Part shown: piece after piece, positions 27,498 to 33,651 of the stretch
How the letters are laid out: the number at the start of each line of letters is the position of its first letter
Position numbering within the stretch: position 1 is the first letter of the stretch
DNA from: Nitrospinales bacterium
GTDB lineage: Bacteria; Nitrospinota; Nitrospinia; Nitrospinales; VA-1
Assembly (NCBI GenBank): GCA_965262115.1
Contig: OZ253496.1
Location: 1,184,001-1,248,000 of the forward strand
Length of the DNA stretch: 64,000 nucleotides
Direction of reading: 5' to 3'
Position numbers and translations under genes: made by a program
The notes under the pieces: model-generated
Told to the model about the DNA's origin: nothing
Seen by the model: the letters and a program-made list of their open reading frames with translations, nothing else
Databases searched by the model: none

Positions 27498-28613
27498 TCC
27501 TTTCCTGCCTCCTCACCGGTTTTATCGAAACGCAAAAAAGCATTTATAAACGGTTGCAGATCGCCATCCAGCACCGCATCCACATTGCCTGCTTCCACAC
27601 TCGTCCTCAGGTCTTTGACCAGTTGGTAAGGGTGCAGGACGTAAGAGCGAATCTGACTGCCCCACTCAATCTTCTTTTTTTGTTTCTCCATTTCCTTTTT
27701 TTCTTCACCCAGTTTTTCCTGTTCCACCTCATAAAGGCGGGCTTTCAGAACCTTGAGGGCCGATGCCTTGTTTTTATGTTGCGACCGTTCATTTTGGCAT
27801 TGCACCACAATACCTGTCGGCACATGCGTCAGTCTCACCGCCGAATCCGTGGTGTTCACCCCCTGTCCGCCTGGTCCTGAGGCGCGATAGACATCTATCT
27901 TCAAATCTTCTTCCTTGATTTCAACTTCAATCGAATCATCAATTTCAGGGTAAACAAAAACCGACGCGAACGAGGTGTGGCGTCTTTTATTGGAATCGTA
28001 GGGAGAAATGCGCACCAGACGGTGAACTCCAATTTCCGCTCTTAAATATCCGAAAGCATAATCGCCGGAAAATAAAACCGTCGCGCTTTTTATACCCGCC
28101 TCTTCCCCATACTGGGTATCGAGGACTTCCGTCTTATAACCATTGCGGTCTCCCCAGCGCAGGTACATTCGCAACAACATTTCCGCCCAGTCCTGGGACT
28201 CCGTGCCGCCGGCCCCGGAATTGATAGCCACGAAAGCGTTGTTAAAATCAGTTTTACCCGAAAGCATCGCCTTCAATTCTGCCTGTGCCGCCTGTTCGCC
28301 CAGCCGGGTTAAAGCAGACCGGATATCCTCATCCATGGAAGAGTCTTCCTCTTCGGCAGAAAGCTCCAGCATAGCGCCCAGGTCTTCTCTCTCTTTTTCC
28401 AGGTTTTTCCAGATTTCTATCGAACGTTGCAGGTTGAATCTTTTTTGCAGAACTTTTTGAGCAGATTCGTTATCATCCCAGAATCCGGAGCGGACAGTTT
28501 CCGCATCCAGAGACTCAACAGACTTCATATTCTGGTCGACGTCAAAGTAACCTCCGGAGAAGTCCAACCCTGTCCTCTATACCCTTGAAAGCTTTTGCGA
28601 AATCTTCTTGCAT
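27494..28613 (-). CDS. prfB: Peptide chain release factor 2 (programmed +1 frameshift)
   Basis: ATG at 28613 (MQEDFAKAFKGIEDRVGLLRRLL), slippery CTT-TGA-C at 28547-28541 with upstream GGAGG; GGQ and SPY motifs, 'WGSQIRSYV'. Confidence 0.96.
28541..28556 (-). promoter_or_regulatory. RF2 autoregulatory frameshift site
   Basis: CGGAGG-TTA-CTTTGAC on minus strand. Confidence 0.93.
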
Positions 28614-28827
28614 CTGAATCTCCCTATTCATTGACGTTGCAGGTATTTTCCTCAATCTCACGCCGAAAAGCAAGCTGGCCTGACAATCGGAATTGAAAGG
28701 TTGATCCCCAAGGACCGGTTCTTTATACTCAGGAAGCCCCGGTTCTATCAGGGCTATGGCTCCAACCCGGCTAAAGAAGCCTTGAAAATCAGCCGATCAA
28801 TAATAGACCCCCTTGTATGTTGTTCAT

Positions 28828-29044
28828 AAGGGGAATTTGTAGTAGTTGTACCTGTGAGCCCTGTGGGAAGCCGGTTTTGTGTTTTCCACAAGGCTCACAG
28901 GGTTTGATTCAGGGCACAATAGATCGTTTACCCCTTGGGCTTTTAAGCCCGTCCCGAAGCGCAGATTGTTGTGTCCTATTTTGATTAACCCGAACAGTTG
29001 CCTGGGCCACTGAGCCCGCATCGGCAAGGCTGGGAGACCAAATT
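28828..29044 (+). ncRNA. Putative IS110 bridge RNA
   Basis: 5' hairpin 28851-28901; target loop 28911-28977 with TTTACCCCT and CCCGAAG; donor loop with ACAGTTGC (28994-29001) and CAAG (29025-29028) matching the element's circle junction. Ends approximate. Confidence 0.8.
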
Positions 29045-29995
29045 ATGAATCAGAAACCCCATTTTATTGGCATCGATATTTCTAAACTCCATCTGGATGT
29101 TGCTGACAGCATGACTCAAGAAACCTGGCAAACCGCTAACAATGAAGAAGGGATTGCTGGTTTGGTCGAGAGTTTATCCGCCTTAAATCCTCCATTGATC
29201 GTTTTGGAAGCCACAGGCGGCTTAGAGATCCCGTTGGCTTCGGCCCTGGTTGCGGGTCGACTGCCAGTAGCCGTGGTCAACCCACGGCAAGTTCGTGATT
29301 TTGCCAAAGCCACCGGGAAACTGGCAAAAACCGATGTCATTGATTCTCTTGTGCTGGCCCATTTTGCCAAGGCCATACGTCCTGAGGTCAGGAAAATCAA
29401 AGACGAAGAATCTCTGGAACTCTCAGCTCTAGTGACACGCCGTCGCCAGTTGATCGAGATGCTGACCAAAGAAAAAACCCGTCTAAAACAAGCTCCAAAA
29501 TGGATATGTAAAGACATTAAGGAGCATATCGAATCTCTTAAAAAACGCTTGCGAAAAATCGATGGCGACCTTTCCAGAACCATCAAAAACAGTTCTGCCT
29601 GGCGTGAGCACGACCAGATCATACAAAGTGTTCCCGGTGCCGGTCCCGTTCTGGCTGTCAACCTCTTGGCCGGGGTTCCGGAACTTGGAGTTCTTAATCA
29701 GAAGCAAATCGCCGCCCTCATCGGTCTCGCTCCCCTCAATCGGGACAGCGGAAAGTTCCGGGGCCGCCGGTGTATCTGGGGCGGTCGCGCCAATGTGCGT
29801 GCCGCTTTATACATGGCCGCCGTCACTGCCATGCAGCATAATCCCGTGATTCGTACCTTTTACACACGCCTCATCGAAAAGGGCAAACCCTTTAAAGTTG
29901 CCATTACCGCATGCATGAGAAAGTTATTAACGATCATCAATACCATGATCAAAACAAAAACACTCTGGAATGAAAATCTCATTGCCAGCACTTGA
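29045..29995 (+). CDS. IS110-family DEDD recombinase/transposase
   Basis: 'IGIDISK', 'VLEATG', 'KTDVIDS', 'SVPGAG', 'RDSGK', 'ACMRKLL'; 316 aa, intact. Confidence 0.96.
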   Translation: MNQKPHFIGIDISKLHLDVADSMTQETWQTANNEEGIAGLVESLSALNPPLIVLEATGGLEIPLASALVAGRLPVAVVNPRQVRDFAKATGKLAKTDVIDSLVLAHFAKAIRPEVRKIKDEESLELSALVTRRRQLIEMLTKEKTRLKQAPKWICKDIKEHIESLKKRLRKIDGDLSRTIKNSSAWREHDQIIQSVPGAGPVLAVNLLAGVPELGVLNQKQIAALIGLAPLNRDSGKFRGRRCIWGGRANVRAALYMAAVTAMQHNPVIRTFYTRLIEKGKPFKVAITACMRKLLTIINTMIKTKTLWNENLIAST

Positions 29996-30096
29996 CATTT
30001 AACACAGTTGCTTCGGGGCATGGGTGAAATCCCCAACATCTGGTTCCTTCCCGGAACAAGTAGGCAGAGTATGACCCTTTTAGTAGGACAATCAGG

Positions 30097-31602
30097 ATGA
30101 TTGAAAAAATTAACGAGAGGGTTTTGATTTTCATAGTCGCCTTCAATGCTGAAAAAACTATCCTCAATGTTTTAAGACGCACCCTCTCATCCGTATCCAA
30201 GTTGGACCATCAAGTCCTGATCATAGATGACTGTTCTAGAGACAAGACTTTTAGTAAGACTGTTGAAAACCTGACCCAGTTCAAACCTCTCAATATAAAG
30301 GTTCTTTTCAACCCGGAAAAACAGGGTTACGGAGGAAATCAAAAATTGGGATATCACTACGCCATTGAGAACGGATTCGACTTGGTAGTTCTATTACACG
30401 GTGACGGACAGTATGCCCCGGAACGGCTCGATGAAATGATATCAACCATTATCCGGGAAAAGGCGGATGCGGTGATCGGTTCAAGAATGCTTGACGGATT
30501 TTCTGCCCTTAGGGAGGATATGCCTTTATATAAATTTATCGGAAACAAAATTCTTACTTTTATTCAGAACAGACTTCTAAAGACTCGGCTTTCTGAGTTT
30601 CATTCCGGTTACAGGATTTATAATGTGCAGACTCTAACAAAGATTCCTTTCGAACTGAATACCAACGATTTTCATTTCGACACAGAAATCCTGATCCAAC
30701 TAATTCTCGGAAAATTTTTCATTCGAGAAATTCCTATACCTACCTATTACGGAGATGAAATTCGCCATTTCAAAGGGATCAAATATGCATGCGATGTTAT
30801 TTTTCAAACCCTAAAAAGCCGACTTCATCAAGTGTCGCTGTTTTATGAAAGAAAATTTGATATTCGCAGGGGAGTGGAAAAATATACCCTTAAAAGAGGT
30901 TACCCTTCTTCCCATGAGTATGCCATTGCAGAGGTCAAAAACGATTCTACAGTTCTAGATATTGGATGCGGCGAGTCCCTGATGGGAATAGAGCTTGTCA
31001 AAAAAGGATGCCGGGTTGAAGCCATTGATAGCGAAGACTCTCAAGGGAGGGACAAACTTATTAAATTCACCCAAATAAACCTGAACGATGCCGAAGGCCC
31101 TATCCCTGTCGATCAATTCGACTATATCCTTCTTTTAGACGTTCTGGAGCATCTGGAGAATCCAGAAGACTTTGTCTATAACATCAGAAGGCTGTCGAGG
31201 GGGAAACTCCCAAAGATAATTGTTTCGGTCCCCAACATAGGGTGGTTTACAATGCGCCTGCAACTGCTACTGGGTAGATTCAATTATGGAGTCCGCGGGA
31301 TCCTGGATATGGGCCATCGGCGGTTATTTACTTTCAGTACAATTCTTGCAATATTCAAACAGGCGGGTTATAAAATTACCAAATCCATTGGAGTACCGGC
31401 TCCTTATCCATTAGCCATTGGAGATAATTTTATCAGCCGAATATTAATAACTATCAACCAGGGTTTGATTAAAGTTTTCCCGAGCTTGTTCTCGTACCAG
31501 ATATTTTTAGTCACCGTACCCCTGCCCACAGTGAACGAATTACTGCAAACCAGCCAGGATAGTTCTGACAAACTCATTGATGAAATCTCACGACCCCTTT
31601 GA
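30097..31602 (+). CDS. Bifunctional GT2 glycosyltransferase / class I SAM methyltransferase
   Basis: 'IIDDCSRD', 'GYGGNQK', 'LHGDGQY', 'EFHSGYR'; C-terminal 'VLDIGCG', 'DVLEHL'. Confidence 0.9.
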   Translation: MIEKINERVLIFIVAFNAEKTILNVLRRTLSSVSKLDHQVLIIDDCSRDKTFSKTVENLTQFKPLNIKVLFNPEKQGYGGNQKLGYHYAIENGFDLVVLLHGDGQYAPERLDEMISTIIREKADAVIGSRMLDGFSALREDMPLYKFIGNKILTFIQNRLLKTRLSEFHSGYRIYNVQTLTKIPFELNTNDFHFDTEILIQLILGKFFIREIPIPTYYGDEIRHFKGIKYACDVIFQTLKSRLHQVSLFYERKFDIRRGVEKYTLKRGYPSSHEYAIAEVKNDSTVLDIGCGESLMGIELVKKGCRVEAIDSEDSQGRDKLIKFTQINLNDAEGPIPVDQFDYILLLDVLEHLENPEDFVYNIRRLSRGKLPKIIVSVPNIGWFTMRLQLLLGRFNYGVRGILDMGHRRLFTFSTILAIFKQAGYKITKSIGVPAPYPLAIGDNFISRILITINQGLIKVFPSLFSYQIFLVTVPLPTVNELLQTSQDSSDKLIDEISRPL

Positions 31603-31682: not shown

Positions 31683-32411
31683 ATGACATTCCAGAATAAA
31701 ACCCTCAAAGTTGCATTTTTGGGAACAGTATTGATAATTCTTGCGGGCAATGTTTATTCTCTATTTTTTTACGCCAATCTCATTCCTTTGCATGTGGATG
31801 AAGGGAGATATTTTTTTCATTTTACGAACACATTATTTCAAAATAGATTTGAACTTTATTTTCAATACCCAGTTCATTCACTTACTATTTATTTGGCAAA
31901 AGTGTCTCTCTGGATTTTTGGAAAAACTGGAATTGGTTGGAGACTCCCGGTAATTCTTTTTTCCGTGCTGAGCGGGGGCATTCTTTTTTATTTTGTATGC
32001 AAAACAGTTCATTCATTCCGAGTGGCAACTCTGGCCCTGAGCTTTCTGTTCCTCAACCCATTCTTCATTCACTATTCGCACGAATTAAGGGGATATCCGT
32101 CCCTGTTTTTCTTCGCAGTTTGCAGTTATGCATGTTTGTGGCTTCTGTTTGAAAGAAAAAGTCAGTTCGGCCCATGGTGTGGACTTTTTTTATCCCTTTT
32201 GGCTTGCTATGTGGCAAGCATTTCATCCTTAATGTTTTTCTTTGTATTTCTTTTCGTGATATGGATTCTAAGGTTGCTTGAGCATTTTTCATATTTTCAA
32301 GATCATTTAAAGCTTTTCAACAATATAAATACTAAGCATTTATTTATATTTTCCTTGGTTTTTTCGATTGTTGTCCTTTTTATTGTTTTCAAGGTCGACT
32401 ATAAAACTTGA
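31683..32411 (+). pseudogene. GT-C (PMT/ArnT-like) membrane glycosyltransferase truncated by IS30
   Basis: 'LHVDEG', 'RLP', 'YSHELRGY'; stop coincides with IS30 left end. Start uncertain (31599 or 31683). Confidence 0.7.
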
Positions 32412-32506
32412 GTTCAAGTTGTAAGTACAACTTTTATGGTTGATTAAGAGGCAAGCTGGGATAAACTCCACAGCGTTTCTCAAATCGCCAAATCAAAGGA
32501 GCGCGG

Positions 32507-33618
32507 ATGAGAGTTTATGCCCAACTTACCCAAGGACAACGATACCAGATTGAAGCACTCTTAAAAACGGGTCATAACCAAACAATGATAGCCAAAGTAC
32601 TTACCGTCCATAAATCAACGATCAGCCGTGAGATCAGACGTAATCGAGGTCGCCGTGGTTACCGGCCAAAACAAGCCCAGGAGAGGGCTGTGATGCGCCG
32701 TTTAATCAAATCCGTACCGCGCATCGGTTTTTCTACCTGGACCATGGTGGACTCCCTGATCAAACAAGACTGGAGCCCGGAACAGATCTCAGGCCGTTTG
32801 TTCAAAGAACAAGGCATTTCGATCAGTCACGAACGCATTTACCTCTATATTTACCAGAACAAACAACAAGGCGGTGATCTTCATAATCACCTGCGTTGCC
32901 AGAAAAAACGCCGCAAACGTTATGGTAAACAAGATCGCCGGGGACGCATTCCCAACCGCATCAGCATTGATAAACGCCCGGCTATCGTTAACAACAAGTC
33001 CAGGATCGGTGACTGGGAAGGCGATCTCATCATTGGCAACGGACACCGGGGGGTCATCGCCACCCTTGTAGAACGCAAAACCAAATATACGGTTCTGGCC
33101 AAATCGAACACCCAACAAGCCCGGTCGGTACGCCAAACCCTCGAACAAGGACTTAGGCCTCATAGAAACAGGGTTCACACAATCACCTGTGACAACGGGC
33201 TGGAGTTTGCCGAACACCAGAAAATGGCGCAATCCCTGTCGGCTAATATCTACTTTGCCCATCCTTATGCTTCTTGGGAACGAGACCTTTGCATAAGTCG
33301 AAAAATCGAAGAATCTAGATGCTTCGACAAGCTCAGCATGACAATACTGGGCCATTTTGTCATTCTGAGAAACAAGGTGACGAAGAATCTCGGGTTATGC
33401 AAAGGTCTCCTTGGGAACGGGGCCTGAACGAAAACACCCATGGACTCATTCGACAATATTTACCAAAATCACCGCCCCTGAATAACATCACCCACAAGAA
33501 ACTGGGCACCATCATGGATCAACTCAATCATCGACCCAGAAAAACACTCGACTTTAAAACACCCTGTGAACTATTCTTCAAAAAACAAACTTTACTAACT
33601 GTTGCACTTACTAGTTGA
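32507..33618 (+). pseudogene. IS30 transposase split by MITE
   Basis: HTH 'HKSTISREIRRN', 'WSPEQI', 'GDWEGD', 'CDNGLEF', 'PYASWER' then 'GLNENTHGLIRQYLPK...RPRKTL' resumes after the insertion. Confidence 0.92.
33282..33409 (+). mobile_element. 128-bp MITE with 15-bp perfect TIRs and 9-bp TSD
   Basis: GAGACCTTTGCATAA...TTATGCAAAGGTCTC flanked by CTTGGGAAC (33273-33281, 33410-33418). Confidence 0.93.
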
Positions 33619-33651
33619 ATCCACCGGTGATTATTCAGCACCAGCAGGAAT

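Follow-up and report, generated by a model that had tools for sequence, protein, structure and literature searches.

Targeting of REPs is textbook behavior of the IS110 family of insertion sequences. In its available text, PMC11208160 describes REPs as targets, predicts bridge RNAs in 85.7% of catalogued IS110s, reports longer right guides in some orthologues with right-side pairing of 4 to 7 bases, and separates the IS110 group from IS1111 by a long left end, a short right end, and an RNA within the left end. The mechanism is described for IS621 (accessible portions of PMC11208160, PMC11208158, and PMC13626964). Whether excision is a cut-out or a copy-out process is disputed in print, including in the accessible parts of PMC13626964 and 10.64898/2026.08.31.748434. 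Among the titles found in literature searches, none concerned a Nitrospina IS110 element; the supplements of PMC11208160 may list the clade.

Here, we describe such an element in a 64,000-nt stretch of a Nitrospinales genome (the window). The element is very probably an intact, recently multiplied IS110-group insertion sequence with a predicted IS621-type bridge RNA in its left end, by which the recombinase is likely guided into the hairpin of a ~40-nt repeat.

RESULTS

The element spans positions 28812 to 30012 of the window (1201 nt) and has CT at both ends; CT is shared at both junctions, and empty repeats contain one CT. The initial annotation covered 28812 to 30017, of which positions 30013 to 30017 are host target. 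With 233 nt before the open reading frame (ORF) and 17 nt after it, the element has the long left and short right ends of the IS110 group and not of IS1111. All of its features lie on the + strand. The left CT core (28812 to 28813) reads CT in 24 of the 25 paired left ends in the genome and TT in one. It is followed by the right donor arm TGTAT (28814 to 28818), which 54 of the 55 relative loci parsed at both ends also carry. The left donor arm ACAGTTG and the right CT core (30011 to 30012) together occupy 30004 to 30012, and there are 26 right ends in the genome. As annotated initially, joining of the ends creates TTGACA-N17-TATGTT (17-nt spacer computed), in which the predicted −35 hexamer (29992 to 29997) overlaps the stop codon and the predicted −10 hexamer lies at 28816 to 28821. 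No circle junction was present in the genome assembly, and no circle joint was listed in eight sequencing runs, all of them contigs, which drop rare variants. A promoter scan yielded no site for the RNA within the linear element and one weak + strand site at 28701 to 28729 (3 sites found versus 1.6 expected).

The ORF (29045 to 29995) encodes an IS110 recombinase of 316 amino acids, which passes the profiles PF01548 (86.9 bits) and PF02371 (73.5 bits), both above cut-off, and NF033542 (226 bits; cut-off, 140). Residues D11, E55, D97, D100, and S235 align with D11, E60, D102, D105, and S241 of IS621, and thus DEDD and the catalytic serine are retained. Close named homologues belong to Nitrospinota; the IS621 protein is distant (E 5.8e-30), and the top solved-structure match is ISCro4 / IS622 (PDB 9t56; E 9e-33). 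All 32 PF02371 matches in the genome constitute one family, that of the element.

The segment from 28825 to 29044 folds with −82.6 kcal/mol (z, −3.25; 1 of 200 shuffles as good), and both a 5' hairpin (28851 to 28901) and a stem (28911 to 28977) claimed previously are part of the MFE fold. The short motifs reported initially were all recovered in place: TATGTT from 28816, CTTCGGG from 30011, TTGACA from 29992, and the guide and stem motifs given below. The target-binding loop with its outer stem (28911 to 28977), placed by motif positions, covariation, and consensus fold, contains the left target guide (LTG) TTTACCCCT (28927 to 28935), an inner stem-loop (28937 to 28950, with GGGCTTTTAAGCCC at 28937), the right target guide (RTG) CCCGAAG (28953 to 28959), and a predicted handshake CG (28960 to 28961). 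CCCGAAG is, as described before, the reverse complement of core plus right flank, CTTCGGG (30011 to 30017). The donor-binding loop (28989 to 29034) was assigned by motif positions and covariation, with a pairing pattern as in the available text of PMC11208160. It contains the left donor guide (LDG) ACAGTTGC (28994 to 29001), whose letters recur at 30004, a stem (29004 to 29017), the right donor guide (RDG) CAAG (29025 to 29028), and a predicted handshake GC (29029 to 29030). The RDG is likely part of a discontiguous 9-nt guide (29020 to 29028), the AT of which is invariant in the alignment and the nine bases of which fit the discontiguous donor pairing of IS621. Together, the donor 8-mer and the right-guide 7-mer occurred in 9 of 20000 shuffles of the left end.

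In the single-sequence MFE fold, parts of all guides are paired; the consensus fold from 40 aligned sequences, out of 49 distinct ones, leaves both target guides unpaired. Pairing of guide segments inside stems, which the initial annotation had named as a refuting observation, thus occurs in the single-sequence fold but not in the comparative fold. The two-loop scaffold has 23 pairs; 98.9% of their cells in the alignment are paired, and 12 of the pairs show two-sided changes (0 of 500 shuffles as high). This stem covariation was strong in the target loop and weaker in the donor loop (2 of 7 pairs with a two-sided change); the five pairs that RNAalifold places across the donor guides all lack two-sided changes. 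A scan of the window with Rfam gave 0 hits. The 5' hairpin is lineage specific and lies outside the conserved core. It was rejected as a conserved part of the RNA because it is optional across relatives: 30 of 41 distinct 5' segments measure only 18 to 55 nt and fold weakly, and ~51 nt present in the 5' segment of locus L089 are absent from L088. The hairpin contains TTTTCCACA (28882 to 28890), which fits the DnaA-box consensus; one or two DnaA-box-like motifs are also present in L001, L084, and L085.

In the 2.68-Mb genome, 26 left-end and 26 right-end matches gave 25 rows after pairing. Two of these were left out: c12, in which a duplicated 163-nt left end is added to c13, and c16, a chimeric row made of fragments that surround an IS3. 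The 23 full-length copies (21 of the main type and 2 diverged) have the same ends. Fifteen main-type copies have intact ORFs, and 6 carry one 10-bp deletion; main copies differ by 0 to 13 substitutions, a low divergence that points to recent spread. At G000:C1:2144617-2145980, a full copy follows directly on 163 nt of left end. The second left junction falls within the element, at a CT inside the stem of its own target loop, and looks like an off-target self-insertion. The two diverged copies (G000:C1:1834459-1835638 and 1931070-1932249) are frameshifted and ~87% identical. They look mosaic, with stretches identical to the main type alternating with diverged stretches, and both have in common a right flank of 227 nt, at the end of which lies another repeat. 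This shared flank is possibly carried cargo; growth of IS110s by cargo, reported in the available part of 10.64898/2026.08.14.744561, may bear on the pair.

Insertions fall in the hairpin end of a dispersed repeat of ~40 nt, a loose pattern for which has 244 matches in the genome. Its target hairpin, CCCC-TTC-GGGG, is centered on the core and has a GAA loop on the bottom strand; next to the window's copy, the right target TCGGG (30013 to 30017) and a remnant of the repeat make up host DNA at 30013 to 30021. The recombinase was also considered as the mover of this repeat, a role that is not supported, because the repeat ends without CT core or guide match and all PF02371 matches in the genome are of one family. 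The right flanks of the 26 right ends were TCGGG (23), GCGGG (2), and CGGGG (1). In empty repeats, the base after the core is A in 42, G in 39, C in 30, and T in 28 cases, and the T variant was taken by 21 of 21 main copies (P, 3e-13); with the 10 IS3-associated copies counted once (n = 12), the chance of all T is 2.5e-8. Copies thus reside almost only in the single-base T variant that matches the predicted guide, in agreement with the claim that the element has its own target specificity. The 14-nt target decoded initially claimed too much specificity on its left side, positions 1 and 2 varying among insertion sites. In 17 of the 21 main copies, TACCC was present at positions 3 to 7, and 4 of 21 matched the left guide at 9/9.

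Could flanks be this uniform through duplication, gene conversion, or carriage by IS3 instead of many guided insertions, with the element perhaps mostly passive now? A left flank of ~910 nt is common to 9 copies, 10 copies touch a 1290-nt IS3-like element, haplotypes look mosaic, and the variant pair has its 227-nt flank in common. However, the 11 main copies outside IS3 include no pair sharing a left flank of at least 20 nt, and all have TCGGG; moreover, ends are exact, and the related genome G015 has 19 right ends in varied flanks, most of them TCGGG. We therefore consider this explanation improbable. The IS3-like element, presumably of the IS3 family judging from its protein motifs, is found at G000:C1:695240-696529, in six more full copies, and in ten copies interrupted by IS110. 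The ~40-nt repeat sits at its orfA/orfB boundary. In the 7 copies free of IS110, the target is perfect in 4 and altered at one base in 3; those occupied by IS110 have a perfect target in every case.

The left flank of the window's own copy is an outlier among the copies. The initial annotation held that the left guide decodes against this flank, but AGACCCC (28805 to 28811) matches TTTACCCCT at only 5/9 including the core, or 7/9 with a one-base bulge; the guide decodes against other copies. In one of six relatives compared (L116), homologous host sequence continues with an 11-mer matching 30022 to 30032 at 10 positions, which weakly suggests that the copy inserted into a 14-nt truncated hairpin. 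The window's copy would then likely occupy a truncated repeat as a tolerated partial match whose right arm is full and whose left arm is weak; for IS621, insertion at partial matches is reported in the accessible part of 10.64898/2026.08.31.748434. An assembly slip was considered as the source of the odd flank and rejected: contigs of X2, X3, and X4 run to 28836 without difference or gap, although they cover no more than 25 letters of the element and may derive from the source sample.

Several features of the surrounding DNA were also noted. On the minus strand, prfB contains at 28540 to 28560 its programmed frameshift site, CTTTGAC, with GGAGGT upstream. To the right of the element, 30097 to 31602 holds a fused family-2 glycosyltransferase and methyltransferase, a region that has a match in just 3 of 22 further genomes from the genus. 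Two IS30 copies (window 32407 to 33625 and G000:C1:2173693-2174911) are inverted and identical over 1219 bp, and DNA that adjoins the prfB upstream region in G013, G019, and G006 lies next to the distant IS30 copy here, suggesting a ~960-kb inversion between the two. This inverted identical pair explains the synteny change beside prfB better than the IS110 element, which was rejected as a breakpoint.

Guides and flanks were then compared among relative loci. Of an initial 110, 97 were left once 10 without a recombinase hit and 3 missing the 5' part of the recombinase were set aside, and conserved flanking motifs, with AG required at the guide end, allowed the target loop to be parsed in 80 of them. 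Four own-genome loci were excluded from the counts, each guide was counted once, and the shuffles are uncorrected for kinship. The left guide matched its flank in 177 of 259 cases (37 guides) versus 84.7 after shuffling, with 0 of 20000 kinship-uncorrected shuffles as high. Matches at positions 1 to 7 numbered 8, 18, 26, 30, 32, 30, and 33, versus 8.0, 12.7, 13.4, 11.9, 10.6, 10.2, and 18.0 in shuffles; position 1 gave no covariation signal with the left flank in these 37 guides. For the right guide, the five bases past the core matched in 86 of 110 cases (22 guides) versus 32.6, again with 0 of 20000 kinship-uncorrected shuffles as high, and each of the five positions matched in 15 to 20 of 22 guides (5.6 to 7.5 shuffled). 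Since all five positions covary, a right guide of 7 nt characterizes the clade as a whole. The LDG equals the donor (right end) in 52 of 56 loci, which comprise three donor types. The first handshake base of the donor loop pairs with target position 7 in 30 of 38 cases versus 21.8 expected from shuffles (4 of 20000 as high); the target-loop side is invariant among relatives and hence uninformative. With the predicted handshake bases, the number of Watson-Crick pairs would rise from one before exchange to two, plus a wobble, afterward; IS621 has one and three. After rows with more than 3 mismatches were dropped, 16 mismatches had the wobble direction predicted for the strand versus 2 with the opposite one (left, positions 3 to 7, 8 of 17 versus 0; right, 8 of 21 versus 2).

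That the matches between the left end and the junctions are due to chance, or to DNA-level repeats read by the protein alone, is hardly credible. The pairing of guide parts in the single-sequence fold would fit this idea, but position-specific covariation, stem covariation, and the strand-specific wobble bias contradict it.

Close relatives follow looser single-base rules than a strict code. In G016, the assembled guide predicts CCGGG, and the five flanks are TCGGG (two), TTGGG, CCGGG, and GCGGG; a clean third guide swap looked for in this genome was not found. The G013 guide fits its TCGGG flank only via two wobbles, and the 19 right ends of G015, which lacks an assembled guide, comprise 13 TCGGG, 3 TTGGG, 2 CCGGG, and 1 TAGGG. 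Of three metagenome loci, L149, with a G guide, fits and is located in CCGGG, whereas the fit of L150 includes one wobble and one mismatch; in L151, the base after the core does not match, the guide predicting ACGGG and the actual flank being TCGGG. Many relatives target nonpalindromic sites. In our genome, the right guide of both diverged copies carries an A-to-C change (CCCGCAG), and both lie in GCGGG; this association has a Fisher p of 0.011 as two events and 0.077 as one. Since these copies differ at 4 bases and share their right flank, they may represent one event.

These data bear on the question of whether pairing with the bridge RNA is needed but not sufficient, the target hairpin or the repeat beyond the 14-mer also deciding the site and the T preference being partly structural. 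Empty TACCCCTTCGGG sites were followed by GCA in 28 of 28 cases and all lie in the repeat, and guide and repeat context are therefore inseparable here. Furthermore, T flanks prevail even with guides predicting C or A, and in the available text of 10.64898/2026.03.19.712850 the target stem-loop is a specificity determinant for ISPpu10. On the other hand, the two copies with the changed guide are located in the G variant, L149 follows its G guide into CCGGG, a G guide reading T is ordinary wobble, and the targets of many relatives are, as noted, nonpalindromic. Such a structural contribution is possible, although we would not presume it; it supplements guiding by the bridge RNA and does not replace it.

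DISCUSSION

Both the 23 same-ended copies and the guide-flank covariation in relatives support the initial reading of the locus as an IS621-type IS110 element that has a bridge RNA and a target of its own. This reading builds on observed ends, CT cores, catalytic residues, copy number, target bias, and covariation. By analogy with IS621, low read-through would supply the RNA, and a rare donor circle would join ACAGTTG-CT-TGTAT, rebuilding the TTGACA-N17-TATGTT promoter. The donor loop would pair with the circle junction and the target loop with nnTACCC-CT (bottom strand) and CT-TCGGG (top strand), and the recombinase-RNA complex would exchange strands at the CT core. The handshake bases would favor insertion, with more pairing after exchange than before, and of the four repeat variants, the T form would be the one selected by the 7-nt right guide. 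More tentatively, and as a combination we think rather unlikely, this one genome might record a natural guide swap, in which a one-base RTG change shifted an IS110 lineage between two variants, T and G, of a mobile hairpin repeat of 40 nt, from the former to the latter; the core-centered hairpin of the repeat would be a second layer of specificity with a geometry unlike that of ISPpu10, and the element would also travel inside IS3 via the repeat, forming a three-level nest.

What the element adds is a divergent, apparently active bridge-recombinase orthologue with a natural full 7-nt right guide and well-mapped natural insertion sites. The four natural one-base target variants make single-base discrimination, wobble tolerance, and effects of the target hairpin directly testable. 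The novelty implied initially is not supported, as the accessible text of PMC11208160 already contains longer natural RTGs and right pairing of 4 to 7 nt, and a 14-nt target is known for IS622.

The element resembles IS621 of E. coli in its long left and short right ends, CT core, predicted two-loop bridge RNA, and DEDD plus serine residues, as well as in the predicted junction promoter and handshake asymmetry and in insertion into a palindromic repeat (PMC11208160, PMC11208158, and PMC13626964, as far as available). It differs in its distant protein and other guides, in an RTG of 7 nt in nature compared with 4 nt in IS621, and in a target repeat that is a ~40-nt hairpin module of Nitrospinota. 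With ISCro4 / IS622 it shares the model of a 14-nt target and donor with handshake guides (accessible part of 10.1101/2025.05.14.653916), but it belongs to another clade and has another target, and activity was demonstrated for ISCro4 / IS622, whereas our element is known from its sequence. Like ISPpu10 and ISPpu9 of Pseudomonas putida, it is a multicopy IS110 confined to a repeated intergenic palindrome (available portions of 10.64898/2026.03.19.712850 and PMC12288879). The stem-loop of ISPpu10, as far as described there, is formed by a 5' extension and the left target; in contrast, the hairpin targeted by our element is centered on the core, and its left arm pairs with its right arm. The picture of how IS110 elements work is unchanged by this locus, which offers a clean case, found in nature, of a mechanism already published and is not a new system.
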